Below are positions 11,266-61,424 of a stretch of DNA of 64,000 nt, in pieces. This stretch comes from Nostoc sp. (GTDB lineage Bacteria > Cyanobacteriota > Cyanobacteriia > Cyanobacteriales > Nostocaceae). Made by a program: the position numbers and the translations under genes. The DNA lies in the NCBI RefSeq assembly GCF_036917615.1, contig NZ_JBALCZ010000040.1, positions 80,292 to 144,291 of the forward strand. Reading direction: 5' to 3'. Below the pieces are notes generated by a model, which worked only from the letters and a program-made list of their open reading frames with translations, made no database searches and had not been told where the DNA came from. Position 1 is the first letter of the stretch; each line of letters starts with the position of its first letter.

Positions 11266-11746
11266 ATGGGGCATAAAGCAGAGATGTTCCAAAAACTTTT
11301 TGTAGGTAGAAAAAGCGGCGTTGCTGAATCATGGGATGATTTCGGGCGTAAGCGACATATAGTTGTAGATTCTCAAGGGTTGTTGATTGGTGTTCTAGTG
11401 ACTCAAGCCAATGCATCGGAACGTTTGGGTGCTGTAGTTGTACTGCATGAAGCGGCTGTTGAATTGTCCAAATTGGAAGTTGTTTGGGTAGATCAAGGCT
11501 ATTCAGGAGAAAACTTTGCTCAAGCCGTCAAGAAAGTTTGCAAAGAACAGGTTCGTGTTGAGGTTATTTCAAAGGAACTCGAAAACATTTGAGCGATTGC
11601 CGAAACGATGGATTGTGGAACGGACATTCGGGTGACTCAATCGATTTCGCCGTTTGAGTAAGGATTATGAGTTGTACACAGAGTTAAGTGAAGCAATGAT
11701 TTATGGTTTATTGATTCGTTTGATGATAAAGCGGATGGTATCTTAA
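11266..11746 (+). pseudogene. IS5/IS4-type DDE transposase remnant (C-terminal half, with a frameshift and a TGA)
   Basis: Reads GRKRHIVVD...VWVDQGYSG. After a frame change near 11590 it reads LPKRWIVERTFG*LNRFRRLSKDYE. No N-terminal half and no terminal repeats were seen. Confidence 0.8.
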
Positions 11747-14313: not shown

Positions 14314-15264
14314 CTATATGCGACACTTTATAATTCTAGATATATATGCGTTACGATCACCACTACCTTGATAAGTTACTATCCAGGGGAGCTCTCCTTC
14401 TGGACTGCTAAGAGAATATTCAGGTAATGGCACGTACGAAAAAATACCCTTCTCATCTAACTTTCCCCACCCAATTTGACTCATAAACTTCAAAAGATCA
14501 TTGTTTACATCGCTTGATTGGAAGATGCGCTTCTGAATACTAAAACCAAAGTGTTGTTTAGAGTATTTTGTCCAGAGATTATCTATAGTACGTAAGTCTT
14601 CGCACGAAAAATTCTCAAAGTCTTTTGCTTGAAGGCTGCGTTCTTCCCATTTGCCAGCCAATTCCCACATCCTATTAGCGGTTTCACGATCAGCGTCTTG
14701 CCATCTCTCCTGTGATAGTAAATTTTGTAGTTGAATGTAGCGTGAGTTAACCGATTGCGTTCTAGAAATTTGAAACCCTGCCAAACTAGCTAACCCAATT
14801 AAAAAAATTGCTCCACCAGCCAACCAATTAAGTCTTGTTGATTGAGATTTTGCTCCATCTGGTTGATTAGAGGAATTTATTCTGAATTCAGTAACAAGAC
14901 TAGGTGTTGGAGAAGTTTGTTGTTCTACAGTGCTTGGATTTGGATAATTATGTCTAAATTCCTGATTACAATTAAGTTTTACGGCAATTTCTTTTAAAAA
15001 AGATTCATGTTTTCCTCCCTGAAAAATAGGCGCTAGCTCCTTACAACAGAGATGACAGATGGCTTTTGTATTTCCTACTGTATTTAAGTAGTTAATTAAA
15101 TTTATAGCGAAGCTATCTTCTGAAGATTCGTACATAAAACCAAGTTCCTTGTAGTGGCTTATTCCAATCTTTATACATAGTGCTTCTCGTGCTTTTCCTT
15201 TCTGGCTAATAACTAATAGGTTTGCTAATGCATTTAGTTCATCTTGGTTTAAATCTTGTAACAT
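14314..15264 (-). CDS. Adaptor (EAD/death-like) domain - TM helix - GUN4-like domain protein
   Basis: 316 aa. The N-terminal ~95 aa are homologous to the C-terminus of the upstream protein. One TM helix (LNWLAGGAIFLIGLASLAGF). GUN4-type motifs RWQDADRET, CEDLRTIDNLWTKYS and HFGFSIQ. Confidence 0.75.
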   Translation of the reverse strand: MLQDLNQDELNALANLLVISQKGKAREALCIKIGISHYKELGFMYESSEDSFAINLINYLNTVGNTKAICHLCCKELAPIFQGGKHESFLKEIAVKLNCNQEFRHNYPNPSTVEQQTSPTPSLVTEFRINSSNQPDGAKSQSTRLNWLAGGAIFLIGLASLAGFQISRTQSVNSRYIQLQNLLSQERWQDADRETANRMWELAGKWEERSLQAKDFENFSCEDLRTIDNLWTKYSKQHFGFSIQKRIFQSSDVNNDLLKFMSQIGWGKLDEKGIFSYVPLPEYSLSSPEGELPWIVTYQGSGDRNAYISRIIKCRI

Positions 15265-15280
15265 ATATTTAACTTACAGA

Positions 15281-16216
15281 TTACTTACAATTTAATTTTG
15301 ATTTAATATTTTCTAAATCAGCTGAGTACTTCCCTCTTTTAAAGACAACTTCAAGTTCTTTACTTATTTTACAAAGAGCTTGTTTATCATCTATATTATG
15401 TAAATAATTAATGAGCTGTAAGGCAAAGTCAGTGTCAGCAGATTCTCTTATAAATCCAAGTTGATTTGGTTCAATTCCAGTTTTGATACATAGTGCTTTT
15501 CGTGCCGAATATTCTGCACGTCCACTACGTATCAAGAGTTCTGTAAGTATCTCTTTGTCGAACTCGTTTAGTTCCTGATCTGACTCAGACGCAGATTCAT
15601 CTGAGACTGGAGGCTGGTCTTGAGACCAACTTATCTTAGCAACTGTCTCCCGCATATTTGGTTTCTTCTTTAGAGTCGGGGTTAGTTGCTCTGGAATACC
15701 TGCTAACCGAATTGCAGCACAACCAAATTTGTAGGCAAATTCAACGGAGCGTCCTGCTCCTAGAGCATCGTAAAAACCTACAGCAAATTCAATTGCTGCT
15801 CTATCTCCGATTGCCTTTTTCATGCCAATTACATAGTTAATCTGTTGAGAGATTGCTTCTGCCTGCATTTCCGAGTAACAGCCGTTAAGAACAATACATT
15901 CAACCTGATCAGCAAACAAATCAAACAGTCCCGCTAGAGCTTCTCCATTGACTAGCTTTGCCGAACCTGTTTCATCTTCAAATACCAGACCCTCATCTTT
16001 CGTTCCATGCCCAGAAAAATGAATAATCTGTGGATTAATATCCAGCATCGCCCGCTGAATATCTCTCGGTCGCACTGCCCACTTCTGCTCTAAGACAAAC
16101 TGATCGCGGTGTTTTGCTCGCTGCAATCCAGCATCGATTTCACGCACTTCCTCATCTAAACGCAGTGGTGTTGTGCCTTGAGGATTTGCTGCTAAAATCA
16201 AGATTTTTTGCTGCAT
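15281..16216 (-). CDS. Minimal caspase-like (CHAT-type) peptidase domain fused to a C-terminal adaptor (EAD/death-like) domain
   Basis: 311 aa. Reads ILILAANP..LRLDEEVREI..IIHFSGHG (His)..ECIVLNGCYSE (Cys)..GDRAAIEFAVGFYDAL. The C-terminal ~95 aa are paralogous to the neighbour's N-terminus. Confidence 0.75.
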   Translation of the reverse strand: MQQKILILAANPQGTTPLRLDEEVREIDAGLQRAKHRDQFVLEQKWAVRPRDIQRAMLDINPQIIHFSGHGTKDEGLVFEDETGSAKLVNGEALAGLFDLFADQVECIVLNGCYSEMQAEAISQQINYVIGMKKAIGDRAAIEFAVGFYDALGAGRSVEFAYKFGCAAIRLAGIPEQLTPTLKKKPNMRETVAKISWSQDQPPVSDESASESDQELNEFDKEILTELLIRSGRAEYSARKALCIKTGIEPNQLGFIRESADTDFALQLINYLHNIDDKQALCKISKELEVVFKRGKYSADLENIKSKLNCK

Positions 16217-16381
16217 AGATTAACTCCATTTATATGATGAAAAGTTTTTTTACATAACTAACTTCCTTACTAGCAAGGCTGTTCAACCGCATTTAGTGGT
16301 AACTTCTTACCTATTTCCCTATCAGCTTGTGAAATTTCGTTTGTTAACAGCCATTGCTGGATTAGCTCAGTGACTACCTGA

Positions 16382-16685
16382 TTCATCTTTTTACCCTGTA
16401 TAACGCCGGAAGTTGATCTTGGCTATCTGTTTGACAAGTCCTATTGGAACATGGGACTAGGGACTGAAGCCTCTCAAGTAACTTTAAAGTTTGGATTTTG
16501 GGAAGTGAAGCTAGATTGGATAGTAGCGATGCCGAAGGCGGGCTACGCCTACGCTCATCGGTGAAAACATCGCTTCAGTGGGTGTGATTCAAAAGGTAAG
16601 AATGAAGTACCAAAAGAATGCTATCTATTATGGTCATGATGTAGTGTACTACGCTATCTCATACACAGAATGGCAGCCGGGATGA
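16382..16685 (+). pseudogene. GNAT N-acetyltransferase, core and C-terminal fragment, frameshifted by a 28-nt repeat insert
   Basis: Reads FIFLPCITPEVDLGYLFDKSYWNMGLGTEASQVTLKFGFWEVKLDWIVA. After the insert, in another frame, it reads IGENIASVGVIQKVRMKYQKNAIYYGHDVVYYAISYTEWQPG*. Confidence 0.7.
16529..16556. repeat. SDR-like repeat inserted in the GNAT remnant (28 nt, causes a frameshift)
   Basis: atgccgaaggcgggctacgcctacgctc lies between WIVA and IGENIAS. The length follows from the frame offset. Confidence 0.75.
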
Positions 16686-17115: not shown

Positions 17116-18138
17116 ATGACGCAACCTTTAAATCAAGTCAAAGAGTGGGAACAACGTCGTGAGCAAGCAAACCGCTACTACCAGTGCGGGAAATTTCAAG
17201 AATCTCTCGATCTTGCAACCAAAAATTTACACTTGGCTAGAGCAATTCCAGACCGAGTTAGGGAAGGTTATACATTGAACGACCTCGGTTTAGCTCACCT
17301 CAGTTGCTGGCAACCTCAAAGAGCATTAGAGGTGTTTCATCAGGCACTTTTGGTTGCTGTCGAAATTGGCAACGCGCCAGCACAAGCAACTGCACTTAGC
17401 AATTTGGGTTCTACCTACAGCCGTCTTGGACGCTTTTCGCAAGCGTTGGAATATTTTGATCAAGCACTGCCAATCTTTAGGCGATTGCAAGATATTGAAA
17501 GTGAAGTTTCTATTCTTAATGATGTAGCGCTAATTTATACCCACTTAGGAGAACCGAAACGGGCACTGTTACTACAACACCAAATTTTGAGGATGCGGCG
17601 ATTGTTAGGTGACTTTTCTGGTGAGGCAACAACCCTAAATGCCATTGGCTTTGCTTACAATATCTTAGGCAAGTTTGAGCAAGCTCTAGAATTTTTACAA
17701 GCAGCACTTCCAATTCAACGAGCTGTCAAGAATTTGGTTGGTGAAGCAACCACTTTGAATAATATTGCCTCAATCTATAGTGATTTAGGAAAACCGAAAC
17801 AAGCGTTATTACTCTACTATCAAGTTCTTTTGACACGTCGAGCAATCCGCGATCGCTCTGGCGAGGCAACAACGCTTCACAACATTGGTTTTACCTACAG
17901 CACCCTGGCAGAGCATCGGCAGGCAATGAAGTTCTATAAACAAGCCATTACGATTTATCAACAACTAAACGATTGTCTCGGAGAAATTTCAACTTTGCTG
18001 AATATGGGAAGCCTTTACGCCACAACGAAACGCAAAAAATTGGCGCGATCGTGCTACCAAAATGCCCAAGAGTTAGCAGAGAAAATCGAACATCAGCCAC
18101 TCCTGGAAAAAGTACAGCAGTTTATAGATTCTCTCTAG
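17116..18138 (+). CDS. TPR-repeat protein (about eight TPR_12-like units)
   Basis: 340 aa with a recurring 40-aa pattern GEATTLNxIGxxYxxLGxxxQALxxxxQAL. Confidence 0.85.
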   Translation: MTQPLNQVKEWEQRREQANRYYQCGKFQESLDLATKNLHLARAIPDRVREGYTLNDLGLAHLSCWQPQRALEVFHQALLVAVEIGNAPAQATALSNLGSTYSRLGRFSQALEYFDQALPIFRRLQDIESEVSILNDVALIYTHLGEPKRALLLQHQILRMRRLLGDFSGEATTLNAIGFAYNILGKFEQALEFLQAALPIQRAVKNLVGEATTLNNIASIYSDLGKPKQALLLYYQVLLTRRAIRDRSGEATTLHNIGFTYSTLAEHRQAMKFYKQAITIYQQLNDCLGEISTLLNMGSLYATTKRKKLARSCYQNAQELAEKIEHQPLLEKVQQFIDSL

Positions 18139-30424: not shown

Positions 30425-32194
30425 ATGCAGATGGATTGGATTAGCTTACTCAAAGCTCAACAAACTGACTTCCTTCAACGTGTGAAAAAACCTAAAACTT
30501 ATGACTTATCTTTGCTGGAAAGTCAAGTTAAAGGTTGTCACACTGAAGTTATGGCCTTTTGGGGGGAGCCATTGGCTAGACTCCAAGAACTTTCTCGCCA
30601 ACAAGCAGAAGTTCTCGCCAAAAATCCGCCGCCGACGCCGCCGGAATATCCTGAGCCTCCTGACTGGACGATACCTTTTCCCAAATACTTCCAACAACAA
30701 GCCCAAGATTATCTTTTACGGGAGCATATTGTTGACAGAGTAATAACTGAACGCTTGGGCAAGTTAGTAAAAAAGGTGTCACAAGATACTTTGCAAAACA
30801 TGATTTTAGATGATGAGGGAAATTTGGGTGGCGAAAGTAAATTTCCTTATACGATCAAAGATCATCCTCAGCTAAGTGTTCAAGTTTACGTTGCTGATGG
30901 AGAAAGTTTTAATGGTATTAAGAAAGACAAAATTAAGTGGTCAGTTACTCAAGAAGATTTAAAAAATCACCAAGTATTAATTTTTCTCTGTTTGTTTTAT
31001 CCATCTACAGGTAATTTAGGTTACGAAAGACAAAGCATAATTACAGGTTTTTTACCTACAAATGAACTTGAATTTTCTGAACCAAAACTGTATGTCACTC
31101 CGAGTAATTTGTTATACGCGGGGGGGTTGAGTTGGTATTTAGAATCACTTATGGGTAAAAAAGACACGTCGCCAGTAATTAATGAGAGAGCGATCGCAGA
31201 TACAATACAGACTCTACCATCAGAGCATTGCCTCAAGGGTATAGTCGGTGACTGGGAATGCTGGCAGACTTTGCAAGGGCACAACAGAGGGATTAATTGC
31301 TTGGCTTTCAGTTTTGCGTGTAATAATGGCAAAGCCTTACCCATATTGGCAAGCGGGAGTCGGGGAGAGACGAAGCTCTGGGATTTAAGCAAGGGTGAAT
31401 TAATAGATACATTGTCAGAGTATCCTTGGGTGATATCTGGGCTGGTGGATGAAGTGAATTCCCTCGCCTTTAGTTCAGATGGGCAGACTTTAGTGAGTTG
31501 TGGTGCAGATTCCACAATTAAGCTTTGGCATGTAGGCGCACTAGATTTGATAGATATTTTGCACAAACATAATGGGGTAGTGCGGTGTGCTGCCTTCACC
31601 CCAGATGGCAGAATGTTAGCTACTGGCGGAGATGACAGAAAAATTCTGTTTTGGGATTTGATGCAACGTCAGGTTGCGATCGCCCTGTCTTTAGATGATA
31701 CAGCTGCTCATTCCCTGGTTTTAAGTCGAGACGGGGAAACTCTGGTTACAGGTAGCTACCGCAAAATCAAAGTCTGGCGCACCTTACCGAAGACGGGGAT
31801 TAAAAGTTTAAAGGACGCACAACCACTGCATACCCTCATGGGTCATTCTCACATCGTTCGGTCCTTAGCAATCAGTGCAGATGCTAAACTGCTCGTGAGT
31901 GGTAGCTGGGATCAAACGATTAAAATTTGGCAATTGGAGACTGGGGAATTACTTCATACTCTGAAAGGACATAGAGATAGAGTATATGCGATCGCTTTAA
32001 GTCCCGATGGACAAATTATTGCCAGCGGTAGTGCTGATAAAACCATCAAGTTATGGCATCTACAAACCGGGGAATTGCTGGGTACGTTTACAGGTCATGG
32101 GAATATAGTCACAGCATTAGCTTTCACAGCTTCCGGCGAAATGTTGGTTAGCGGGAGTTTGGATAAGACAATTAAAATTTGGCAACGGAGTTAA
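30425..32194 (+). CDS. WD40-repeat protein with an uncharacterised N-terminal region of about 270 aa
   Basis: 589 aa. The C-terminal half has repeated GH...SPDG..LASGS.D.TIKLW units. Confidence 0.85.
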   Translation: MQMDWISLLKAQQTDFLQRVKKPKTYDLSLLESQVKGCHTEVMAFWGEPLARLQELSRQQAEVLAKNPPPTPPEYPEPPDWTIPFPKYFQQQAQDYLLREHIVDRVITERLGKLVKKVSQDTLQNMILDDEGNLGGESKFPYTIKDHPQLSVQVYVADGESFNGIKKDKIKWSVTQEDLKNHQVLIFLCLFYPSTGNLGYERQSIITGFLPTNELEFSEPKLYVTPSNLLYAGGLSWYLESLMGKKDTSPVINERAIADTIQTLPSEHCLKGIVGDWECWQTLQGHNRGINCLAFSFACNNGKALPILASGSRGETKLWDLSKGELIDTLSEYPWVISGLVDEVNSLAFSSDGQTLVSCGADSTIKLWHVGALDLIDILHKHNGVVRCAAFTPDGRMLATGGDDRKILFWDLMQRQVAIALSLDDTAAHSLVLSRDGETLVTGSYRKIKVWRTLPKTGIKSLKDAQPLHTLMGHSHIVRSLAISADAKLLVSGSWDQTIKIWQLETGELLHTLKGHRDRVYAIALSPDGQIIASGSADKTIKLWHLQTGELLGTFTGHGNIVTALAFTASGEMLVSGSLDKTIKIWQRS

Positions 32195-46215: not shown

Positions 46216-47532
46216 TTAAAAAATAAAAATAATTTCTAGTTTTAATTCTTTATTCTGAAGAGTAATCTGAATTTGCCTGATGAATTCTCGAAAGTAAAAT
46301 CGTCGCTCTGTTTCTGACAAATCTAACCAAAATTGTGGTATGGAAACAGCTTGAGCAACAGAACGCAAGTTAACTGGAGGAAGAGTCGCTAACTTTGCTT
46401 CGAGTGCAGAAATTTCTGTGCGGAGTTTATAAGCCCTTAACTTTGCTGTTTCAACATCTAAAATTCCAGTTTCAATCAAAGCGGGTAACTGAGCAAGTAT
46501 TTCTTGCTGACGAGCGATCGCTTGTCCTAAACTATTCTTGACTGCATCCAATTGGGGAAAATTCATCCCCGCTACAGCTAAGGGTAAGTCACGGCAAACC
46601 GTTTCAATTGTATGTTCTAAAACCTCTTGATAGGGAATAGCCTTACACTTGGGGCTTTGAGGACAGCTAGTAGAACGTAAATAAAGATACTCCTTATCTT
46701 GATTGCGTTGGGTGACACGAGTAACTGTCATGTGTGATTGACACTCAGCACAGACTACCAACCCAGCTAAAGAACGTGGCGCACTAGCAGTTCGGGATGG
46801 TAAACGGCTGTTACGGCGTAAAAGTCGGTCAACTTGGGCTGCTTCTTCTTTAGAAATTATCGGAATATGGGTATTGGAGATAATTTCACCATTTTGGTAA
46901 GCTGTATTGCCGCGATAAACTGGATTAGTTAGCCAGCGTCTTCCTGTGGTGACAGAGATTTTTTTGGCGTATTTTTTCGCCAAGTAACGAACTGAACCCC
47001 GCAGGGAACCATAGAGTAAAAAGTGTTCAAAAAAATCTTTGACTACTGGTGAAGTACTGCGGTCAATGGTATATTTTCCCTTACCTCTGCGATAGCCGTA
47101 GGGAACTTTGCCGGGTGGCGGTGCAACATCGAGACGATTACGGGCGTGTCCTTCACGGATGCGACGACTACGTTGCTGACGTTGGATTGCGTGTAGCAAA
47201 TTCAGCAAGTCAGCGCCCAGAGGGTAATTTTCGGAAGTGTAGGGCTGTTCAGTGGCGATGATCGCTACTCCCATTGCTTCGAGTTGATGCAAGCGATCGC
47301 TAATTTCCTCTACAGTATCCCCTAATTCTTCCAACCGACGAATCAGGAGATAATCTGCTCCTTCAGTTTGGCAATCGGTAAATAATTGTTGTAATTGCGT
47401 TCGCGTAGCGTGTCCAAAGGACTCTGGCTTACCCAAATCTTCATAAACCTGATCCACCTCCCATCCCCAATCAGCTTGATCGGGAGAAGATTCTAATAGC
47501 GGATTGGTATAAGAGTAGGCAATGATTTTCAT
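46216..47532 (-). CDS. Large serine-recombinase-family protein with non-canonical catalytic positions
   Basis: 438 aa. Contains a resolvase-like N-domain, a recombinase domain (PYGYRRGKGKYTID...WLTNPVYRGN), a zinc ribbon (CAECQSH...CPQSPKC) and a C-terminal coiled coil. Confidence 0.75.
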   Translation of the reverse strand: MKIIAYSYTNPLLESSPDQADWGWEVDQVYEDLGKPESFGHATRTQLQQLFTDCQTEGADYLLIRRLEELGDTVEEISDRLHQLEAMGVAIIATEQPYTSENYPLGADLLNLLHAIQRQQRSRRIREGHARNRLDVAPPPGKVPYGYRRGKGKYTIDRSTSPVVKDFFEHFLLYGSLRGSVRYLAKKYAKKISVTTGRRWLTNPVYRGNTAYQNGEIISNTHIPIISKEEAAQVDRLLRRNSRLPSRTASAPRSLAGLVVCAECQSHMTVTRVTQRNQDKEYLYLRSTSCPQSPKCKAIPYQEVLEHTIETVCRDLPLAVAGMNFPQLDAVKNSLGQAIARQQEILAQLPALIETGILDVETAKLRAYKLRTEISALEAKLATLPPVNLRSVAQAVSIPQFWLDLSETERRFYFREFIRQIQITLQNKELKLEIIFIF

Positions 47533-47585
47533 TAGTCATTAGTCATTAGTCATTGGTCATTGGTCATTGGTCATTGGTCATTGGG
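47530..47585. repeat. Heptamer array (CATTAGT x3, CATTGGT x5) abutting the recombinase start codon
   Basis: Read directly. The first cat of the array is the reverse complement of the ATG. Confidence 0.85.
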
Positions 47586-47638
47586 ACAAAACAAGGTAGA
47601 GACTTTTTCAATAATTCCCCCTTGTCCCCTACTCCCCC

Positions 47639-47998
47639 TTACTGCTGACTCAACTCGATAATATTTCCATCTGGGTCTTTAGTGAACAGGGCAGCGCGAC
47701 CGGAAGCGCTGGCTTGAATGGGATAATTATGATTGAGGAATTGCTGTTTGGCGGCGTCTAAGTCAGTTACTGAGAAGGCGACGTGGGGATTACGTCCCCA
47801 TTTTTCGTTGGGGTTTTCGGTGGGGACAGTAGGTGCGACTATCAGGTGAATTTGATAGTCGCCGACTTGATACCATGCACCAGCGTAGTTTAAGGAACGA
47901 TCTATTTTGGATAATCCTAATACTTTGCCATAAAAGTGTTCGGAGCGTTCTAAGTCAGTGACAAGAATCGCTGTATGGAGACTTTGGGTAATTTGCAT
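47639..47998 (-). CDS. VOC/glyoxalase-family protein
   Basis: 119 aa with the pattern HTAILVTDLERSEHFYGKVLGL. Confidence 0.8.
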   Translation of the reverse strand: MQITQSLHTAILVTDLERSEHFYGKVLGLSKIDRSLNYAGAWYQVGDYQIHLIVAPTVPTENPNEKWGRNPHVAFSVTDLDAAKQQFLNHNYPIQASASGRAALFTKDPDGNIIELSQQ

Positions 47999-48136
47999 TG
48001 TTGGTAAGTGCGATCGCGTTTATTTAAATTTTGACGTAGTTTCAACCCTTGCGGGGAGTGGGGAAGCAAAATAGCAGGGGAGAATAATAATAACTGATGC
48101 TCCATGCCTAATAACCAAACTAAAAAATGAGGATAA

Positions 48137-48595
48137 ATGATGGATGCTCAATTAAGTCATACGGAAATGAATGTTGCACGGGGGATATTACAAGATTACG
48201 ATCCTGCACAACACGCATTGAATCACTTGGAAAAACACAATGGCAAAGTTGAAACCGCTTTTGAGGATTTGTGGATTGAGAAAAATGGACAACCGTTGAT
48301 GCAGCAAAGAAAATCACTTTGGCAAGTAACACTAAAGGTATTGCGTGAGGAACTCTGTGGCGATGATGGTTTTCGCGGCCAACTTCAAGATTACACGAAG
48401 AATCCAGGGAGTTCGCCCTTGCTGACAGGGTTGATTATCTCCCTTGTTGGTGTAGCGACGGCACACGGTTTGCCAATTGATCCAGCGATCGCAACTGTTA
48501 TTGTTTTATACATCCTCAAAATCGGCTTGAATATTTTTTGCGAATACACCGAAGCACCCGTTAGCAATTCTGGAACTCTAGCGCCAGGAAACTGA
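48137..48595 (+). CDS. Hypothetical protein with a hydrophobic C-terminal segment
   Basis: 152-aa ORF. No motif recognised. Confidence 0.45.
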   Translation: MMDAQLSHTEMNVARGILQDYDPAQHALNHLEKHNGKVETAFEDLWIEKNGQPLMQQRKSLWQVTLKVLREELCGDDGFRGQLQDYTKNPGSSPLLTGLIISLVGVATAHGLPIDPAIATVIVLYILKIGLNIFCEYTEAPVSNSGTLAPGN

Positions 48596-48652
48596 TGTGC
48601 TACTTTGCAAATCATTGCCTTTTTTGGATGCTTTGTGTATGGTGTACACTTT

Positions 48653-48752
48653 GACCTCTCTCCAAACCTCTCTCCTTTTAGGAGAGAGGCTTTGAATCTT
48701 ACTCCCCTTCCTTTGTAGGGAAGGGGCTGGGGGTTAGGTCTGTATTGGACTA
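48653..48752. repeat. About 100-bp double-hairpin dispersed repeat, copy 1
   Basis: ctctcctTTTAggagagag and ccccttccTTTGTAgggaagggg stems. Near-identical copy at 55244. Confidence 0.85.
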
Positions 48753-48775
48753 CCGTGAAAGCGGCGTCCACGCTT

Positions 48776-49180
48776 CTATAATTGCCTTGTCTCCGCTGGA
48801 GGCGCATCCCAGTTGTTGTTACGGCCATCAGCAAATCGAATGGGCGCTTCAATGAGTTCCGTTGGTTCGGCGTTGTCAAGGGCAGCCAATTGGACTGAAA
48901 CGTAGTCACCGCCAATCTCTTCAACGTGCCCACGAGCAAACGATCGCACGCCGCAGTGCTTGCAAAAGAGATGATGTCCAACTTTTAGATTGAACTGGTA
49001 GTCGCTCAAGTCGCCCTCGCCGGATAGCAATCGGAATGCGCTGGGCTTGATGATTGCGTTCCAATTCCGCGTTTTCGTGCAGATTGAGCAGTTACATTTG
49101 TTTGTACCCAAGCTCAGGTCGATGTCGGCTTCAAATCGAACTGCGCCACAATGGCAGCTTCCAATAAAGGTTTTGAGCAT
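48776..49180 (-). CDS. GFA/CENP-V-family zinc protein (glutathione-dependent formaldehyde-activating-like)
   Basis: Motifs [14 protein letters not shown] and FCKHCG. Start placed at the internal MLKTF. Confidence 0.8.
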
Positions 49181-49455
49181 CACAATTTCCCAAGAGATTG
49201 TTGTCCGAAAAACGTACAGGCTTTTGTATAGTGACAAATTAAATGGCGTCGAAACAAATTCGTGTCATCAAGCTGGGTCTTACCCCCTTTTAGGCTTGCA
49301 ACAATTTGTGTTGATGCCTGTAAGTTTTCTGTGCTGATTCTAGTCTGAATGCTAGAGATTCCAGCCTTCACACCCTTGATGAAACTAATTTGGCACAGCG
49401 ACAAATAAAGAGTCTACTGGATAAGTGAGTAAGTCCTAGTAATCTCTTGCAACTT

Positions 49456-49518
49456 GATTGTATCGACTGACAATGCCATTGTATCGACTGACAATGCGAT
49501 TGTATTGACTTGCTACAC
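49456..49518. repeat. Three tandem 21-bp units, each with internal dyad symmetry (CATTGT..ACAATG)
   Basis: gattgtatcgactgacaatgc / cattgtatcgactgacaatgc / gattgtattgacttgctacac. Confidence 0.85.
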
Positions 49519-49569
49519 TTGCCTAATGAGTATGATCTGGTCACGCCCCTGTTAAATGCCATCACTCAA

Positions 49570-51267
49570 TCACTCCGGTAATCTCTTTAACGCCTCCCGT
49601 GCGATCGCCCCCCAATATTCATCCTCATACTCAACATATATCTCCAAGGCTGTCTGCAAATTAACCCTCGCCTCTGCGTAGTTTTCTTCTGCTTCTGCAA
49701 GCGTTCCTAATTGACCGTAGGTACTGGCTTGGGAATAGCTATCACCAAATTCGATATCGATTGCCAAAGCTTGTTGGTAATTGCGCCGCGCTTCTTCAAA
49801 TTCAAACAAATTTTGGGCAACTCTTCCCAACTCGTGGTAGGTGTCAGCTTGAGAATAGCGATCGCCAAATTCGATATTGATTGCCAAAGCTTGTTGGTAA
49901 TTGCGCCGCGCCTCTTCAAATTCCCGTAAATCTTGGGCAACATATCCCAACTGGTGGTAGGTGTCAGCTTGCGAATAGCGATCGTCAAATTCAATGAAGA
50001 TTGCCAAAGCTTGTTGGTAATTGTACCGCGCCTCCTCAAATTCATCCAATTCTTGGGCAACTCTTCCCAACTGGTGATAGGTGTCAGCTTGCGAGTAGCG
50101 ATCGTCAAATTCGATGAAGATTGCGAAAGCTTGTTGGTAATTGCGCCGCGCCTCTTCAAATTCTCGCAATTTTTGGGCAACCATTCCCAACTGGTGGTAT
50201 GTGTCAGCTTGTGAATAGCGATCACCTATTTGTTGTTCAATTTCTAAACGCTGTTGATAAAAAGTTGTCGCCTGTGTAAATTGTCTCAATTCCAAGTAAG
50301 CATTACCAAGTTTCAACAAAGCAGCAATTTCGCCGCGAGGATTCTGAAGTTGCTGTGAAATACTTAAAGATTTTTGATAATAAGCGATCGCTCTATCAAA
50401 TTGCCTTTGCTGAGAATAAGAATCTCCTAATGTATTGAGGACTTCAGCATGGAAGGTGGAATCTGGAAACTCACTAGCTATTTTTTCAGCTTCTTCTAAA
50501 TATTCTCTAGCTTTGATAGGTTCTATCTTACTTAGATACGCGACTCCTAGCTGATGCAAAATATTACTACAGTTGCGGAGGTTTTCTCCTGTCGGATTAT
50601 GTCCAGTAGGTTTATATTCCATTAGCAGGCGGTGTAATAAATCGATTCGCTCTTGCTTTTCTGAAGGTTCTAATCTGTTTATAATTCTCTCAGTAGTTTG
50701 AGCCTCATTAATCGCATAATCTTTAGTAATTTGAGGTGTTTTAAACCGAAATATACCCGATTGCCAAGCCCAAAAATCAGGAGCAAATTTGGCTAACCGA
50801 GTCAGGGCATAATCTGGCAGAATAAACAGAATCGGATGAGGAACAGTTCTTTTATAAGCATCTCGGACAAAGTTGAGGTCTTGTAAAACTGGCGGATAGT
50901 CTCCATAAACGCCAATAGACTTTTCTAAACCTTGTATAATCAAGACTAATTTTCTGTTAGATTCTATCTCAATAGTTGGTAATATCTTGATAATTTCATC
51001 CCGGAGAAATCGCAAATTTGCATCAGAAAAACTCAGACTAACAAACTGAATATGCCGACACTCAGGATTTGTCTTTAGCGCCTCAACTAATATTTTTACA
51101 TCTGGGGGAAAATTAATTTCCACAAAACCAATCGTAAACTTTTCTGCAAAGTCTACAAAGGTGAGTAATTGAGCAAATATCTCTTGATTAAGGGCGATAA
51201 ACGGCCCGATTTCTGAACTAAGGTTGCGCTGCGAGTGCGGATGCGAGGGCTTTCTGGAAGAATTCAT
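49570..51267 (-). CDS. TPR-repeat protein with an uncharacterised N-terminal domain of about 180 aa
   Basis: 565 aa. The C-terminal two thirds are TPR units. The start overlaps the upstream ATPase gene by 50 nt. Confidence 0.8.
   Translation of the reverse strand: MNSSRKPSHPHSQRNLSSEIGPFIALNQEIFAQLLTFVDFAEKFTIGFVEINFPPDVKILVEALKTNPECRHIQFVSLSFSDANLRFLRDEIIKILPTIEIESNRKLVLIIQGLEKSIGVYGDYPPVLQDLNFVRDAYKRTVPHPILFILPDYALTRLAKFAPDFWAWQSGIFRFKTPQITKDYAINEAQTTERIINRLEPSEKQERIDLLHRLLMEYKPTGHNPTGENLRNCSNILHQLGVAYLSKIEPIKAREYLEEAEKIASEFPDSTFHAEVLNTLGDSYSQQRQFDRAIAYYQKSLSISQQLQNPRGEIAALLKLGNAYLELRQFTQATTFYQQRLEIEQQIGDRYSQADTYHQLGMVAQKLREFEEARRNYQQAFAIFIEFDDRYSQADTYHQLGRVAQELDEFEEARYNYQQALAIFIEFDDRYSQADTYHQLGYVAQDLREFEEARRNYQQALAINIEFGDRYSQADTYHELGRVAQNLFEFEEARRNYQQALAIDIEFGDSYSQASTYGQLGTLAEAEENYAEARVNLQTALEIYVEYEDEYWGAIAREALKRLPE
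49690..50235. repeat. About 4.5 tandem 120-bp units (40-aa modules) inside the TPR gene
   Basis: gcttgttggtaattgcgccgcgc recurs at 49769, 49889 and 50129, with one mismatch at 50009. agcgatc recurs at 49856, 49976, 50096 and 50216. The encoded unit is DRYSQADTYHQLGxVAQxLxEFEEARRNYQQALAIxIEF. Confidence 0.9.
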
Positions 51268-52561
51268 TTTGCTTCACCACTGGATTGGGGTAATTCCATC
51301 GTTTATCGCCGTTGTATTCCAAAACTGAAGTGTTGAACAGCATTAACTGACCAATATCATCTTTGCTGACATTCTTGGTTATACACACTTGGGCTAAAAA
51401 CGCATAATGTTCTTCAGGAATAAACCTTTCAAAACTAAATTGCTGTTGTTTCACAGCATACATAATATCTTCGGCAATAATTTTGGGATGTTTACGAGTA
51501 CTAGCAGTTTGGCAAGCAGTCCGCATCATCTGCATTAATTGGCGGACATGTCCTCCACTGGCTTTGGCTAAATCTAGCAATTCCTGGCGAGATTCAAATA
51601 CAGCATCAATATCTACGCGCTTTTCAATGACGCTGGCAACTGCTTCTAGTCCCGTTTGATTGTAGTTTAAATGGCAGCGATCGCGTTCAAATTCATAAAT
51701 ATTCACCATTGGGACAATATGAGGATTACCATCAAACTGATTGAGTGGGTTTTTAGGCGAACAAAGCACAGAAATTGGAACTGTATAAATTATCGTGCAG
51801 TCTAATTCTTGTAACTGAGCCGCATAGTCAAAAAATAAATGTTCTGCAATTGTCGGTGGTACACGATCCATGTTATCAAAAATAATCAATAAACCCTTAC
51901 ATTGAGGTAATTTTTTTCGGAGTTTAACATAGGCATCTCCTAATAAAAGGTTAATATCTGCTTTGAGACGTGATAGGTCTTTTTCTAAAGTTTGGCGAAT
52001 AGTAGTTTTTTGCTTATCAGAACCTTTAATTTGTGCCAGTAATTTGACCATCAATTTAGCGATAAATGGAGCTTCTGGTTTCAGAGTCGCTTCTCCCTGA
52101 ATACTGACAGACTTTTCTACAGTTTCTTCTGTTTCTTTAGTAATATCCTTAAACCAAGATTCAAAGTTTTCTAAAAGTTGAGGATCAAATTTTAAACCTA
52201 ATTTACGCAACTCAAATTCTACTTGCTTGATGACGATTAAATATAAATCTGTATAATTAGCATCATTAATATCTGTTTCTTCGTTCACTTCTAAATAAAT
52301 TACGTGGTATTGTTTTTCCCATTGGTTCTGAATGCGTTTTAACTCTGTACTTTTGCCACAGCCGCGATGTCCGGTAAACAAAATTGTGCTGAAATCTGCG
52401 GGTTCTTGAAAGTCTAAAATCGTACTAACGCTGTCAATTGCTGAAGTTTTGCGGACTGCTGATAAATCAACATAGTAACGCTCCATGTCTGCACCCTCTA
52501 GCGGTTCAACATTACAAACTTGAAATGCAGCTTTGAGAGTATTAGCACGCTGGTGATTCAT
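51218..52561 (-). CDS. STAND/ORC-Cdc6-like P-loop ATPase
   Basis: 447 aa with Walker A GHRGCGKST, Walker B LLIIFDNMD, a GGHVRQL helical region and a winged-helix-like C-terminus. Confidence 0.75.
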   Translation of the reverse strand: MNHQRANTLKAAFQVCNVEPLEGADMERYYVDLSAVRKTSAIDSVSTILDFQEPADFSTILFTGHRGCGKSTELKRIQNQWEKQYHVIYLEVNEETDINDANYTDLYLIVIKQVEFELRKLGLKFDPQLLENFESWFKDITKETEETVEKSVSIQGEATLKPEAPFIAKLMVKLLAQIKGSDKQKTTIRQTLEKDLSRLKADINLLLGDAYVKLRKKLPQCKGLLIIFDNMDRVPPTIAEHLFFDYAAQLQELDCTIIYTVPISVLCSPKNPLNQFDGNPHIVPMVNIYEFERDRCHLNYNQTGLEAVASVIEKRVDIDAVFESRQELLDLAKASGGHVRQLMQMMRTACQTASTRKHPKIIAEDIMYAVKQQQFSFERFIPEEHYAFLAQVCITKNVSKDDIGQLMLFNTSVLEYNGDKRWNYPNPVVKQNEFFQKALASALAAQP

Positions 52562-53302
52562 TGGGTTTTGACTAACTTTATAAATATGACTTTCTCAATC
52601 TTAAATTTTAGGCGATCGCAGTGCGATTTTACATCTGATCAAAGTTTACTTCTTGATACTACATCGTAATATGTTATACATAAATCAACTAAATAACGAT
52701 ATAACCTAAAAAATTTTTACCGGATGGCTGCGATCGCGCTATCTTGAAAAATGAACTTTCAAGTATGTAAAACTGATGAAAGGCTAAAATCCATATATAT
52801 ATAGATATATATCATCAACGAACAGCATGAAAATAAATTAATTGTCTTGATTGAGGATGTTTCCGATAGGCTAGTACCGCAAGGCGGAAGTCACTCATTC
52901 AAAAGTCACTCATTCAAAAGTATTATGGAATAAGCTCTTTAGGGCTTTTCAATGGTCTATTTATTTACGCCGTGCTGTACTAGTTTTAAAGCAAAACTTA
53001 GCACAGCAAGCCAATGAAATAAATCTGCTATCAAGCAATACACTTGGGTTAAGGATTATTTGTAGTTGGGTTGAACCTAGACGCCGGAGGCGGCTTAAGG
53101 CAGGTAGTGAAACCCAACAAACCACGAAAAATGTTGGGTTTTGTTCCTCAAACGCCACTTGCTAAAGAGCGGGAAAGCTAAGAGCGAACAACTCTTGGAA
53201 AATACGCAACGCAGTGGCTCCCCAACCTACGCTGGTTTTGGTTTTTGGCTTTAACCCAAGCGTATTGTGCTATCAAGTACTTTAATTTTATACAAAAATT
53301 AC

Positions 53303-55207
53303 ATGGATCAAGTAATTACTGCAATGGCAGATGCTTTGTTTTTAACCAATAATTTAGGAAAAATCAAAAAAGTAAATCGTGCTGCTCAACAATTATTTGG
53401 TTTTAGTGAAGAAGAATTAATTAATCAACCAATATCACTGATAATTGATGATGATCAAGGATTAATCCCAGCCATTCACCAGCATTCTTCTTTTCAGAAA
53501 GATTTTCCGAATTTCGAGGTAGTTTGTCGAACCAAGACAAGAGAAAAGCGGCTAATTGCTTTTTCTTGTTCAGTAATTCCGAAAAAAATAAAAGGATTAG
53601 AAGATATTGTCTATATTGGTCGGGATATTACTGCTCGGCAGCAGCGGGAACAGCGTACAAGTACCCAGTATGCTATCACTCATATATTATCAGAATCCGA
53701 GAGTGTAAAGCAGGTAATTCCGCAAATTTTGCAGTCGATTTGTCAAAACTTGGGATGGGATTTAGGCGAACTTTGGACACCAAGTCAATATATTGGCACT
53801 TCGGTACCGAGACACAGCATCAATGCAGTACTAAGGTGTGTGGAAATTTGGTCAAGTCGAGTAATTTCTATCCGAGAGTTTAAAGCAATCACCTGGCAAA
53901 CTACCTATACACCCGGTGTTGGCTTACCTGGTCGAATTTGGATCAGACGTTTGCCCTTGTGGATTCAAGATATCACAGAAGATGGAGACAAAAGGCGATC
54001 GCAACCTGCTGCTGAGGCGGGATTGCACGCAGCTTTTGGCTTCCCCATCTTAGAGGATAGTGAAATCTTAGGAGTGATGGTTTTCTTTAGCCGGGAGGTA
54101 CAACCAAAAGATAAAGACCTATTGCAAATGGTGGGTTCTATTGGTAGTCAAATCGCCCAGTTTATTAAACGTAAACAAGCTTTATATGCTCTTGTAGAAA
54201 GTGAAGAACAATATCGAGATTTATTTGAAAATGCTAATGATCTGATTCAATCCGTCAATGCCTATGGTCGTTTTTTGTATGTCAATCGTGCATGGCGAGA
54301 AACTTTGGGATATAGTGAAGCTGAAATTGCAAATATGACTGTTTTTGATATTATACATCCAGACTTTAAACAAGACTGTTGGCAAAGGTTTTATCGCGTG
54401 CTGTCAGGAGAAAAGTTCGAGCAAGTAATAGTCGCATTCGTTACTAAAGACGGTAAAACAATCTTTCTAGAAAGTAATATTAACTGTAAATTTGTCGAAG
54501 GTCATCCAGTTGCGGTTCGCGGCATTTTTCGCAATGTCACCCAGCGACTAGCAGTAGAAGAAGCGCTGCACCATCATCAAGAAGAAACCGAACGTTTATT
54601 GCTGAATATTTTGCCAGCCGCAATCTCCAAACCCTTGAACGAAGAACCAGCTAACATTGCCGAAGATTTTGCTGATATCACAGTTTTATTTGCAGATATT
54701 GTCGGCTTTACCGAAATTGCTGCTTCTGTGAGTGCAATTCAAGTGGTAAACTTACTAAACTCGATTTTCTCAGCCTTAGATCGCCTCGCCGAGCAATATA
54801 GTTTAGAGAAAATCAAGACGATTAACGATGCTTATATGGTAGTTGGTGGCTTATCCACACGCCGCCTAGATCATGCCCAAGCGATCGCCCAAATGGCACT
54901 GCACATGCAAACTGCGATCGCTCTATTTAATACTGAGAATAACCAAAACTTCAGCATCCGTATCGGCATCCATAGCGGTTCCGTAGTGGCGGGAGTAATT
55001 GACCTCAACAAGTTTACTTATGATCTTTGGGGAGACACGGTAAACATCGCTAGCTGTATGGAATTCCAAGGTATTATTGGTAAAATCCAGGTTACAGAAG
55101 ATACTTATAAGTGTTTGTGTGATCAATTTTTATTTGAAAAGCGGGGCGAAATCGAACTTCAAGGCAAAGGGAAAATAACAACTTATTTCTTGATTGGGCA
55201 AAAGTGA
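53303..55207 (+). CDS. PAS-GAF-PAS class III adenylate cyclase homologue
   Basis: Cyclase motifs VLFADIVGFTE, KTINDAYMVVGG, YDLWGDTVN. Start placed at the ATG (MDQVITA) rather than the GTG at 53267. Confidence 0.85.
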   Translation: MDQVITAMADALFLTNNLGKIKKVNRAAQQLFGFSEEELINQPISLIIDDDQGLIPAIHQHSSFQKDFPNFEVVCRTKTREKRLIAFSCSVIPKKIKGLEDIVYIGRDITARQQREQRTSTQYAITHILSESESVKQVIPQILQSICQNLGWDLGELWTPSQYIGTSVPRHSINAVLRCVEIWSSRVISIREFKAITWQTTYTPGVGLPGRIWIRRLPLWIQDITEDGDKRRSQPAAEAGLHAAFGFPILEDSEILGVMVFFSREVQPKDKDLLQMVGSIGSQIAQFIKRKQALYALVESEEQYRDLFENANDLIQSVNAYGRFLYVNRAWRETLGYSEAEIANMTVFDIIHPDFKQDCWQRFYRVLSGEKFEQVIVAFVTKDGKTIFLESNINCKFVEGHPVAVRGIFRNVTQRLAVEEALHHHQEETERLLLNILPAAISKPLNEEPANIAEDFADITVLFADIVGFTEIAASVSAIQVVNLLNSIFSALDRLAEQYSLEKIKTINDAYMVVGGLSTRRLDHAQAIAQMALHMQTAIALFNTENNQNFSIRIGIHSGSVVAGVIDLNKFTYDLWGDTVNIASCMEFQGIIGKIQVTEDTYKCLCDQFLFEKRGEIELQGKGKITTYFLIGQK

Positions 55208-61000: not shown

Positions 61001-61424
61001 TTTGAAATTGGAAATTACTGAAACCTTGTTGATGGATAATTTTGAATTAGCTACCACCGTACTTTCTCAGTTAACAGCGCTGAATATCGAGTTGCATATG
61101 GATGATTTTGGTACTGGGTATTCATCTTTGAGTTATCTGCACCGCCTACCAATTAAAACCCTTAAGATTGACCGCTCTTTCGTCAGCAATATAGGTAGTC
61201 GAGGCGAAAATTTAGAAATTATTCGAGCTATTGTGACATTAGCTCATAATTTAAATATGTCTGTAACAGCAGAGGGGATAGAAACTGTAGAGCAATTAGC
61301 ACAGTTAAAGGCTTTACAATGTGATTATGGACAAGGGTATTTTTTCTTACCACCTATGGGAAGTGCAGAGGTAGAAATACTACTTGCTGCCAACTTGTGC
61401 GGCAAAAACTTTTTAAAGAGATAA
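58041..61424 (+). CDS. APC-transporter-like polytopic membrane domain fused to PAS-GGDEF-EAL
   Basis: 1127 aa. The N-terminal ~540 aa are TM-rich with an APC-type AGGTPNY motif. Also RFGGDEFTIL (GGDEF), plus EALIRW, DDFGTGYSSL and EGIET (EAL). Confidence 0.85.
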   Translation: MLTNNSVQAEKNQHLIIRLPRTLSYLETWGFGLTGHVGWIGTAPIIHAALGPKAILVWFFGTIISFLLNLQVQSLGRHWSDVAGGTPNYTTRLLKNFPGLGRYVALGYFFSWAAAPALYAIILTNLIKGNFDQIGISCPETLLKVAFTAIPFIVAFSGSRALALLHLFFVFPAILLLLLFCTQGVIWLASSTTSFKFILTSTHSLSFEEWLKWFFLASYSIYACETTSSFVADSRHPYKTLRFLSVAAWLIPPVFLGGSWVLMCSVQNQKIGDDAFLILVAASKPFWGEYAPFLVTLLISLSCLLSSATAVSNSPRILYQLALDRQLSPIFAVVSRQGVLGPAILVTFLLSLLCLNLGNIPQLVTVAGTCYLMSIMGLHLGLWLCRDQPQVLWPWWSLGFFFVEAVVLIVGGLAWNWRDFSVGLLLPIVLIIGDVALRRLRFAPLHPEWWTQHYDTRFSKNNPDFVVLQVIVLVLLICITATSSWVLRNLLDKVSNNPQNSLLAILLVTLSFSGVAIACWTTLPQIVAIDEARKQAKNLFITTLNTVPDTVLVLNENGIICQTNAAAEELFQTTVQQLLGQNLNQLLICYRGKPEQWSIRSEQTLKINQSLRIVESTISQPFNSQLREYVVIVRDITKRKLVEEELIQYRYQLEQMVLERTIELIRVNQQLEQDIIKRQQTQEQLLHNSLHDGLTGLPNQPLFLKRVQWAIERTKQQNNYLFAVLFLDLDRFKVVNDSLGHLIGNQLLIAISRRLKSVLRVGDIVARFGGDEFTILVEEIEDISTAIQIAERIKRVLALPFQLNEHRVFTNASIGIALSKADYHQAAQILRDADLAMYYAKALGKARYEVFDQKMHEGASSLLELETALRNALLKQEEFRLDYQPIISLTTGKIIGFEALIRWHHPKRGLISPQDFIPLAEETGMIVTIGRWVLYQACQQMHIWHKQFPTSLPLTISVNFSGKQITQPDVFKQVKHILQETGLKPCNLKLEITETLLMDNFELATTVLSQLTALNIELHMDDFGTGYSSLSYLHRLPIKTLKIDRSFVSNIGSRGENLEIIRAIVTLAHNLNMSVTAEGIETVEQLAQLKALQCDYGQGYFFLPPMGSAEVEILLAANLCGKNFLKR

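Follow-up and report, generated by a model that had tools for sequence, protein, structure and literature searches.

A two-gene cassette lies on the minus strand of the stretch of Nostoc sp. DNA analysed here (64,000 nucleotides (nt); contig NZ_JBALCZ010000040.1, positions 80,292 to 144,291), which we call the window. In the product of gene A, a CHAT protease module is followed by a C-terminal adaptor domain; in the product of gene B, which is co-oriented, downstream of A, and 16 nt away, a related adaptor is followed by a linker, one transmembrane (TM) helix, and a GUN4-like domain. An earlier note on this DNA had described such a cassette, and both open reading frames (ORFs) and the short gap between them are present as described. 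No terminator-like site was seen between A and B, and no signal above chance was found around the operon for regulatory RNA, promoters, or terminators. The features of the cassette, in window coordinates and with the evidence for each, are the following.

15281..16216, minus strand: gene A, 311-residue CHAT protease with C-terminal adaptor (ORF, Pfam CHAT, PADLOC 'chat')
14314..15264, minus strand: gene B, 316-residue adaptor-linker-TM-GUN4-like protein (ORF, Pfam GUN4)
15265..15280, minus strand: intergenic spacer of A and B, 16 nt (read directly from the sequence)
15656..16216, minus strand: CHAT (caspase-fold) module of A, residues 1-187 (Foldseek match to 8tl0; block means of 86-95 in the predicted local distance difference test (pLDDT))
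16007..16009, minus strand: codon of the putative catalytic His70 of A, in FSGHG (aligned with 8tl0)
15878..15880, minus strand: codon of the putative catalytic Cys113 of A, in LNGC (aligned with 8tl0)
15578..15655, minus strand: disordered linker of A, residues 188-213 (pLDDT <50, after the motif EQLTPxLKKKPN)
15284..15577, minus strand: A-type adaptor (EAD8-like), residues 214-311 (BLASTP against B; adaptor hidden Markov model (HMM), E 2.4e-43; AlphaFold2 (AF2))
14950..15264, minus strand: B-type adaptor (EAD8-like), residues 1-105 (adaptor HMM, E 1.4e-51)
14824..14949, minus strand: Pro/Ser/Thr/Gln/Asn-rich linker of B, residues 106-147 (sequence)
14767..14823, minus strand: TM helix of B, residues 148-166 (LAGGAIFLIGLASLAGFQI; Kyte-Doolittle score 1.87)
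14359..14754, minus strand: GUN4-like domain of B, residues 171-302, predicted extracytoplasmic (Pfam GUN4, 1Y6I)
14368-14370, minus strand: codon of Gln299 of B, the Arg214-equivalent (alignment with Gun4 structures)
14920..16413, minus strand: conserved cassette core common with the closest relative (blastn, 93.7% DNA identity)

Protein A matches the Pfam CHAT family (PF12770) over residues 17-158 with 35.7 bits (cut-off 24; E 8.8e-9), the PADLOC 'chat' model with E 1.1e-23, and the sequence of SAVED-CHAT (PDB 8tl0) with E 1.5e-15 and 28% identity. The AF2 model of A (pLDDT 85.9) consists of a CHAT module (residues 1-187), a disordered linker (188-213), and a helical adaptor (214-311). When this model was compared with solved structures by Foldseek, 8tl0 was again the best match (E 1.4e-12, root-mean-square deviation 2.5-2.7 Å over ~189 columns), followed by caspase-11/4/9, Dronc, gingipain, separase, and MALT1. 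Structure prediction therefore places the N-terminal domain in the CHAT/caspase fold, and together with the Pfam score above the cut-off it upholds the minimal CHAT-type protease that had been read from the sequence.

The catalytic residues of A could be placed by the same alignment. His70 falls on chain index 355 of 8tl0, which is the published H375 (an offset of 20), and Cys113 falls on index 402, which with the same offset is the published C422. In SAVED-CHAT, mutation of the H375/C422 dyad abolishes activity, and the enzyme is turned on by ligand-driven filament formation. Since Cys113 and His70 align with this mutation-validated pair, the His/Cys dyad proposed earlier for A stands; in the family alignment Cys113 is invariant and His70 nearly invariant. 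The CHAT module of A (~190 residues) is a minimal but complete member of the fold and probably an active protease.

Gene A has 5138 homologues, the best 120 of which are 73-94% identical and spread across heterocystous cyanobacteria, and its product has no signal peptide. Elsewhere the CHAT module (50-87% identity) is fused to TIR, FGE-sulfatase, NB-ARC plus TPR, PfkB, and other domains. The motif EQLTPxLKKKPN (window 15656-15690, residues 176-187 of A) marks the C-terminal CHAT boundary in nearly all fusions, and it also occurs in loci L014-L035 and in protein P0131 regardless of the domain that follows (L and P numbers are our handles for loci and proteins); it could be an autoprocessing or hinge site. 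One CHAT-adaptor protein from a representative cluster (P0213, 303 residues) has GQG in place of GHG and has lost the catalytic His, and it may be an inactive, regulatory paralogue.

The C terminus of A and the N terminus of B carry homologous adaptor domains, in agreement with the earlier note: residues 214-310 of A and 3-99 of B are 42% identical (BLASTP E 1e-19). A profile built from both window copies and nine relatives found the adaptor in 192 clusters among 1.84 billion representative proteins, either at the N terminus of partner or core proteins or at the C terminus of effectors. The proteins that carry it N-terminally include iSTAND proteins (P0148, P0210, P0258, P0287), a VMAP-C protein (P0303), NACHT STAND nucleoside triphosphatases (NTPases; P0232, P0305, P0307), a CHASE2 membrane sensor, an HD-CE/HATPase protein, and TM receptors; those that carry it C-terminally include CHAT, TIR, SEFIR/TIR, and nucleoside-phosphorylase-superfamily (PNP_UDP_1) proteins. 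In P0248 the adaptor stands beside Pfam EAD2. Because it occurs on effectors and on partner or core proteins alike, the domain behaves as an effector-associated domain (EAD; Kaur et al. 2020).

Assignment of the adaptor to an EAD family was indirect. The two window copies matched nothing in Pfam (EAD8 included), NCBIfam, or PADLOC, and EAD8 was not found with them even at E≤10. Among 46 diverse members recovered by the window-derived profile, 16 match EAD8 (PF19961; best E 2.6e-6), and weak matches were found to EAD7 in four and to EAD1 in one. By this transitive evidence, which runs through family members, we file the adaptor as a putative divergent, mainly cyanobacterial branch of EAD8. The AF2 model of the adaptor (~100 residues, five main helices, pLDDT 92.6, predicted template-modelling score 0.84) gave no Foldseek match in the PDB at E≤0.001; the best match had an E value of ~2 and a template-modelling score of ~0.3-0.4, and no Death-fold was among the listed matches. 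The adaptor profile likewise found nothing below E 0.8 among PDB sequences. A Death-like fold (DD, CARD, DED, PYD, or bDLD) was rejected on these grounds, as neither structures nor profiles gave a match to Death-fold structures. Of the proposed 'EAD/death-like' adaptor, the EAD half is thus retained, given the iSTAND, VMAP-C, and NACHT cores, the CHAT, TIR, and PNP effectors, and the EAD8 matches, and the Death-like half is not, given the Foldseek result.

Within the adaptor family (numbering of A), Arg239, Cys243, and Phe264 do not vary, and Cys285 hardly does. The identity between A-type and B-type adaptors is the same within a locus (44.2%) as between loci (43.9%), which indicates that the two types are old paralogous subfamilies and rules out local homogenisation of the two copies by gene conversion. 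A search of 50,697 phage records for phage-encoded mimics of the adaptor returned none.

Protein B has the plan of a single-pass membrane protein, so that the adaptor, polar linker, single TM helix, and GUN4-like domain proposed for it are all borne out. Its only hydrophobic helix (residues 148-166) follows a low-complexity linker of ~40 residues, and among its homologues the adaptor and the TM helix are kept and the tails differ. The helix carries a motif rich in Gly and other small residues (KNKLL-GGAI-LIGLAGF-Y) that recurs in partners with different tails, which suggests a role for the helix beyond anchoring. In 85 partner-type proteins, the 15 residues N-terminal to the TM helix contain 259 Lys plus Arg and the C-terminal flank contains 110; the N-terminal flank is the more positive one in 67 of these proteins and the less positive one in seven. 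Because of this bias and because A has no signal peptide, the adaptor is predicted to be cytoplasmic and the tail extracytoplasmic (N-in/C-out). CVNH, Ricin, and PAN are lectin-type families that are usually extracellular, and their presence among the tails (see below) fits this placement.

The tail of B belongs to the GUN4 family. GUN4 (PF05419) is the sole Pfam match of B (110.9 bits, cut-off 29.2, E 7.4e-32), and the tail also matches the solved Gun4 core (1Y6I, E 1.5e-11; 1Z3X, E 2.6e-11). Arg214 of SynGUN4 was reported to be 'absolutely essential' for porphyrin binding (Verdecia et al. 2005). The equivalent residue in B is Gln299, and an Arg occupies this position in 0 of 17 TM-linked GUN4-like tails. 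The description of the domain as 'porphyrin-binding type' is therefore doubtful, and canonical porphyrin binding by the tail of B found no support, since Arg214 is replaced in all 17 tails. GUN4-like domains that do not have the essential Arg should, as a caution, not be annotated as porphyrin binders. Kaur et al. suggested a role for GUN4 fusions in sensing the tetrapyrrole status. The C-terminal 145 positions of the PADLOC model of the PD-T4-6 protein (PDLC04062) match the GUN4-like domain of B (window 14359-14754) with E 5e-32, so a GUN4-like module is present in a catalogued defence protein. This sequence match hints that GUN4-like modules may be sensors in defence proteins outside phototrophs.

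The pairing of A and B is conserved and the tails of the partners are not. A locus scan with one genome per species returned 38 loci, and 14 loci (window included), in which a full-length CHAT protein keeps its C-terminal adaptor, were used to count pairs. An adaptor-TM-tail gene directly follows the CHAT-adaptor gene in 13 of the 14, so that the co-location of homologues is well supported; in the exception (L006), the next gene encodes a TIR-EAD1 protein. All partners share one plan, in which the adaptor is joined by a low-complexity linker to a single TM helix and the tail behind the helix varies. GUN4-like tails, the commonest identifiable kind, are found in the window and in L003, L013, and L038; other partners have CVNH (L011, L012), Ricin (L012b, P0142), PAN (P0134), or TPR (L007) tails, and several have beta-rich domains that match no family. 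Identity to the window falls stepwise along the cassette, from 80-90% in the CHAT module and 69-86% in the A adaptor to 43-65% in the B adaptor, with tails that are often non-homologous. L012 (6001-8428) has a single CHAT-adaptor gene with two adaptor-TM genes in tandem behind it, the first with a CVNH and the second with a Ricin-like tail; here one protease would serve two receptors.

Natural fusions connect the same parts covalently. Two proteins (P0131 and P0133) are CHAT-linker-TM-GUN4 fusions that have no adaptor, P0127 is a TIR-TM-GUN4 protein, P0034 is a CHAT-TIR-adaptor protein, and P0096 and P0102 are A::B hybrids joined within the adaptors. As Rosetta-stone evidence drawn from sequence, these covalent fusions suggest that A and B act as one unit. 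An operon in L039 (651-6501) combines an orthologue of the CHAT-adaptor gene (77% identical) with an adaptor-iSTAND gene and an AAA/AAA_5 ATPase gene; from this arrangement, the TM receptor B appears to fill the slot of a presumed sensor or core protein. The L039 operon also contains an 88-residue ORF and a gene for a membrane protein of at least 728 residues with no Pfam match, and Pfam gave no match to vWA in its third gene. Westiellopsis prolifica IICB1 (L009; P0311) has an A-B pair (B4U84_09155/09160) as well as an adaptor-CHASE2 membrane sensor (B4U84_14045), and several adaptor-bearing receptors may share one protease there. In the 64-kb window itself, the adaptor HMM found no copies other than those of A and B, and the sole NTPase among the 10 large ORFs scanned is a KAP-type gene ~35 kb away that does not carry the adaptor.

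The neighbours of the cassette are not conserved with it. In the closest relative (L044, L045), in which A is 94% identical, DNA homology detected by blastn is confined to window positions 14920-16413, a block that begins ~200 bp upstream of A, spans this gene and the spacer, and runs past the B adaptor into the B linker, where it stops at 14920. Both flanks differ in this relative, and its partner gene is cut to a 116-residue adaptor-only product. A conserved chromosomal context was rejected, as no flanking ORF of the window was found again next to the cassette and even a relative this close has only that block in common with the window. The adaptor-only partner lies at 8954-9425 in L044 and at 6589-7034 in L045, and these two independent assemblies both end ~100 nt after it, which suggests a repeat or an insertion sequence (IS) at that point. 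Adaptor-only proteins might be decoys or may be mere remnants.

The cassette also has plasmid-borne relatives. A divergent pair (L043, 4974-7021) lies on a 39-kb mobilizable plasmid (MOBP) of Tolypothrix sp. PCC 7910 (NZ_CP050444.1) and consists of a CHAT-adaptor gene (~42% identity) and an adaptor-coiled coil-GUN4 gene whose product has no TM helix; the two adaptors of this pair are 51.6% identical to one another. Many cyanobacterial plasmids, from Calothrix, Acaryochloris, Nostoc, and Tolypothrix, encode the CHAT module (55-79% identity), in genes annotated as TIR, NACHT, SAVED, pentapeptide-repeat, metallophosphoesterase, WD40, or serine-protease genes.

In the window, the cassette has an ABC transporter, a tannase, a TPR protein, and an aminotransferase as neighbours, and none of the flanking ORFs, the TPR gene included, recurs beside the cassette in related loci. 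The earlier note had thought that the TPR-only gene at 17116..18138 might be related; the gene is real, but it was rejected as a part of the system, being absent from L001-L013 and having as its sole matches a generic TPR similarity to L031. The cassette had also been called AT-richer than its flanks. This is correct, if modest, for the adaptors, each with a GC content of 0.32, and incorrect for the CHAT segment, whose value of 0.439 is close to the window mean of 0.425; gene B as a whole (0.365) falls in the lowest 9% of same-size windows, and the immediate flanks have values of 0.39-0.41. A truncated DDE transposase fragment (window 11266-11592, plus strand, 108 residues, PF01609, E 2.2e-9) lies ~2.7 kb from gene B on its 3' side, with the tannase gene and the ABC-transporter gene to either side, and looks like an IS remnant.

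Based on these results, we consider it somewhat more probable than otherwise that A and B form an EAD-type sensor-adaptor-effector (receptor-adaptor-protease) module that has no NTPase in the pair and is activated by clustering. B would be a single-pass receptor with its EAD8-like adaptor in the cytoplasm, its Gly-rich helix across the membrane, and its GUN4-like tail in the periplasm (or thylakoid lumen), where the tail would sense a ligand. A would be a cytoplasmic, minimal CHAT cysteine protease that carries the paralogous adaptor, and the adaptors of A and B would bind each other. Ligand-driven clustering of B would then bring CHAT modules together and switch on proteolysis, an activation step that we propose because oligomerisation activates solved CHAT relatives such as SAVED-CHAT. 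The outcome might be cell suicide, dormancy, or a proteolytic signal, and the pair would be part of the conflict and immunity repertoire of filamentous cyanobacteria. It is from computed features (the domains, the dyad alignment, adaptor homology, adjacency, the topology signal, tail variability, the fusions, and the occurrence of the adaptor on NTPase-type cores) that we infer adaptor-adaptor binding, activation by clustering, a ligand, substrates, and a role in defence.

A bolder form of this proposal, which we put forward only tentatively, is that such pairs are an NTPase-free bacterial counterpart of death-receptor apoptosis, in which single-pass receptors with rapidly exchanged ectodomains (GUN4-like, CVNH, Ricin, PAN, and unknown folds) would directly recruit and activate a CHAT protease through a Gly-rich helix and an EAD8-type adaptor. 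Filamentous cyanobacteria have a periplasm that runs without a break from cell to cell. Receptors of this kind might detect invader- or damage-derived molecules that spread from neighbour cells.

Several observations weigh against the receptor-adaptor-protease module. The partner on the Tolypothrix plasmid (L043) has a coiled coil in place of the TM helix and is soluble, and in three loci (L016, L018, and L021) variable beta-rich or lectin-like domains are fused straight to CHAT with no TM helix. Together these show that extracytoplasmic sensing is not obligatory in the family. The domains in question are the same as tails of TM partners in L001/L002/L004 and L005, so that the same sensor domains appear to serve on both sides of the membrane. 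With the porphyrin-binding Arg missing, porphyrin cannot be assumed as the ligand of the sensor arm. A mirror-tree comparison of the A and B adaptors gave no significant co-evolution (r 0.28, p 0.12, n 13), and no experimental work on EAD8 or EAD1 proteins was found in the later literature. That A is so well conserved across Nostocales could mean that its role is one of housekeeping, and our view of this genome spans the 64 kb of the window, so that an EAD8-bearing NTPase core elsewhere is possible.

Such a core is at the centre of one alternative, in which the pair is a satellite of an NTPase-centred system: A and B would dock through EAD8 onto an iSTAND, NACHT, or VMAP core that is encoded elsewhere together with a MoxR-type ATPase, and B would be a recruited module and not the primary sensor. 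We regard this as unlikely, though it has support from the N-terminal placement of the same adaptor on iSTAND, VMAP-C, and NACHT proteins, from the orthologous CHAT-adaptor gene in the iSTAND and AAA ATPase operon of L039, from the co-occurrence of an A-B pair and an adaptor-CHASE2 protein in Westiellopsis, and from the report by Kaur et al. that genomes with stand-alone EAD proteins tend also to have the cognate EAD on a core system. It is the adjacency of A and B, kept without a neighbouring NTPase gene in 13 of 14 loci, that speaks against it, as do the covalent CHAT-TM-GUN4 fusions, which need neither adaptor nor NTPase, and the window, where there is no further adaptor copy and where the KAP-type NTPase ~35 kb off does not carry the domain. 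Alternatively, B might be a tether, an inhibitor, or a substrate, either holding A inactive at the membrane or being cleaved by A in its linker so that the adaptor or the tail is released. The ~40-residue low-complexity linker between the B adaptor and the TM helix would suit such cleavage, the conserved basic motif LKKKPN lies at the CHAT boundary, adaptor-only products exist (for example, the 116-residue partner of the closest relative), and Kaur et al. propose that the constant caspase of EACC1 releases variable domains auto-proteolytically. We nevertheless find this quite improbable, as no cleavage site was identified, the hypervariability of the tails suits ligand recognition better, and the iSTAND protein that occupies the same slot is regarded as a sensor.

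The GUN4 homology itself invites a further alternative, a housekeeping regulator of tetrapyrrole or photosynthesis status in which the GUN4-like tail binds a chlorophyll or haem intermediate and CHAT adjusts pigment biosynthesis or a stress response. This reading draws on clear homology, on the suggestion by Kaur et al. that GUN4 fusions sense tetrapyrrole status, on the 73-94% conservation of A across Nostocales, and on the predominance of GUN4 among identifiable tails, which recurs even in the pair with a CHAT identity of ~42%. We judge it the least probable of those considered here, given that Arg214 is replaced in every one of the 17 tails examined, that GUN4 is swapped for CVNH, Ricin, PAN, TPR, or unassigned domains in orthologous loci, that the flanks are non-syntenic even at 94% identity and one copy is plasmid-borne, and that the other partners of the adaptor family are TIR, PNP, iSTAND, and NACHT proteins.

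If the receptor-adaptor-protease mechanism is true, the cassette would offer a simple, genetically tractable case of bacterial transmembrane receptor-adaptor-caspase signalling in two genes, ~630 codons, and an NTPase-free pair. It would also, for the first time, open to experiment an adaptor of the EAD type, which until now has been defined by comparative genomics alone, and provide a test of whether death-receptor-style, proximity-induced caspase activation has a parallel in multicellular prokaryotes. The exchangeable outer domains amount to a natural library of specificity variants, and work could conveniently start from the plasmid pair in the culturable Tolypothrix PCC 7910 and from the single-chain CHAT-TM-GUN4 proteins. 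The concept would be unsurprising to specialists in these systems.

Other regions of the window contain further features of note. The minus-strand region 46216-52561 contains a large serine recombinase (46216-47532) and, close to it, a KAP-family P-loop NTPase (51218-52561) that overlaps a TPR protein (49570-51267); none of these proteins contains the adaptor, and the region may be a separate mobile or defence islet. On the plus strand are genes for two large signalling proteins, a PAS-GAF-PAS-adenylate/guanylate cyclase (53267-55207) and an amino-acid-permease-PAS-GGDEF-EAL protein (58041-61424), and for a 589-residue WD40 beta-propeller protein (30425-32194) with no domain in its first ~270 residues among the 25 families listed. 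The N-termini of such WD40 proteins in cyanobacteria often carry effector or NTPase modules.

Compared with known systems, the cassette is less novel than the earlier note implied, because the design principle, EAD8, and links between GUN4 and effectors have already been published computationally (Kaur et al. 2020, PMC7159879; Kaur et al. 2021, PMC8195603). The EAD principle, EAD8, caspase/CHAT effectors, and the GUN4 module are all known from comparative genomics, so the phrase 'not a characterised system' applies to the exact pair and not to its parts: the main texts of these two papers do not describe an EAD8-TM-variable-ectodomain receptor paired with a CHAT-EAD8 protein, and both mention EAD8 in lists only. 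The EAD systems of Kaur et al. 2020, in which EAD8 is PF19961, resemble the pair in having a small, helical, non-catalytic domain on a caspase-like effector and on a partner encoded by the adjacent gene, in the presence of this domain on iSTAND, VMAP, and STAND cores, in variable modules that change between close relatives, and in GUN4, noted there as a cyanobacterial module. The arrangement of an effector copy and a partner copy in adjacent genes is found in the window pair, in 13 of the 14 loci, in L039, and in L043. Unlike those systems, the window pair includes no core of the NTPase, vWA, or GTPase kind, its partner is a single-pass membrane protein with the variable domain across the membrane, and its adaptor copies are tied to the EAD8 model solely through family members. 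The NTPase and core of the MoxR-vWA/iSTAND ternary systems are absent from the operon of the window pair and are found in an operon only with the L039 orthologue (iSTAND and an AAA_5 ATPase).

Two other published arrangements are similar in part. The bDLD3-NPCBM and bDLD3-PNPase tandem (PMC8195603) is also an NTPase-free pair with an adaptor on a lectin-fold sensor and on an effector enzyme, but its adaptor belongs to a Death-like family, its lectin is read as intracellular with no TM helix, and its effector is a PNPase and not CHAT. The EACC1/EACC2 systems (Kaur et al. 2020, 2021) are membrane-associated, combine a constant caspase with highly variable domains (sometimes with a TM helix and an extracellular PBP or CHASE2 domain), and have a conserved TM helix rich in small residues that was proposed as a sensor. 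In EACC systems, however, it is the caspase itself that bears the variable domain, and a tiny TM protein encoded 5' of it serves as the constant partner. The EACC1 order of a 5' TM gene followed by a caspase gene with a variable C terminus is not present in the window, where both the genes and the variable domain are placed the other way round: it is the 3'-encoded partner that bears this domain, coupling would be through paired adaptors, and B matched no EACC model.

Individual modules of the cassette also have known relatives. Canonical GUN4, the Mg-chelatase cofactor (1Y6I, 1Z3X), has a homologous core (E ~1e-11) in which many residues are conserved, but the tail of B lacks the N-terminal helical domain and Arg214, is tethered past a TM helix, and is interchangeable with lectin domains. 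The anti-phage protein PD-T4-6 (PDLC04062) shares the GUN4-like C terminus, although it is a single-gene system according to PADLOC and the N-terminal part of its model has no match in B. SAVED-CHAT, from the type III-B CRISPR hybrid of Haliangium with a cyclic-oligonucleotide-based anti-phage signalling system (CBASS), is the closest solved CHAT (8tl0) and has the same dyad context and a sensor-driven oligomerisation; it differs in that it senses cA3 through a fused SAVED domain, its substrate is PCaspase, and it has neither an adaptor nor a membrane component.

In metazoan extrinsic apoptosis (Fas/TNFR-FADD-caspase-8), a ligand-binding ectodomain is linked by a TM helix to adaptor pairing and proximity-induced caspase activation. 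The comparison with the window pair is an analogy only, as the window adaptor is not detectably a Death-fold, CHAT represents another branch of this protease fold, and a bridging adaptor protein is missing. What the two have in common is their layout, with an ectodomain, one TM helix, a cytoplasmic helical adaptor, and a matched adaptor on a caspase-fold protease that, in the proposed mechanism, would likewise be activated by proximity.

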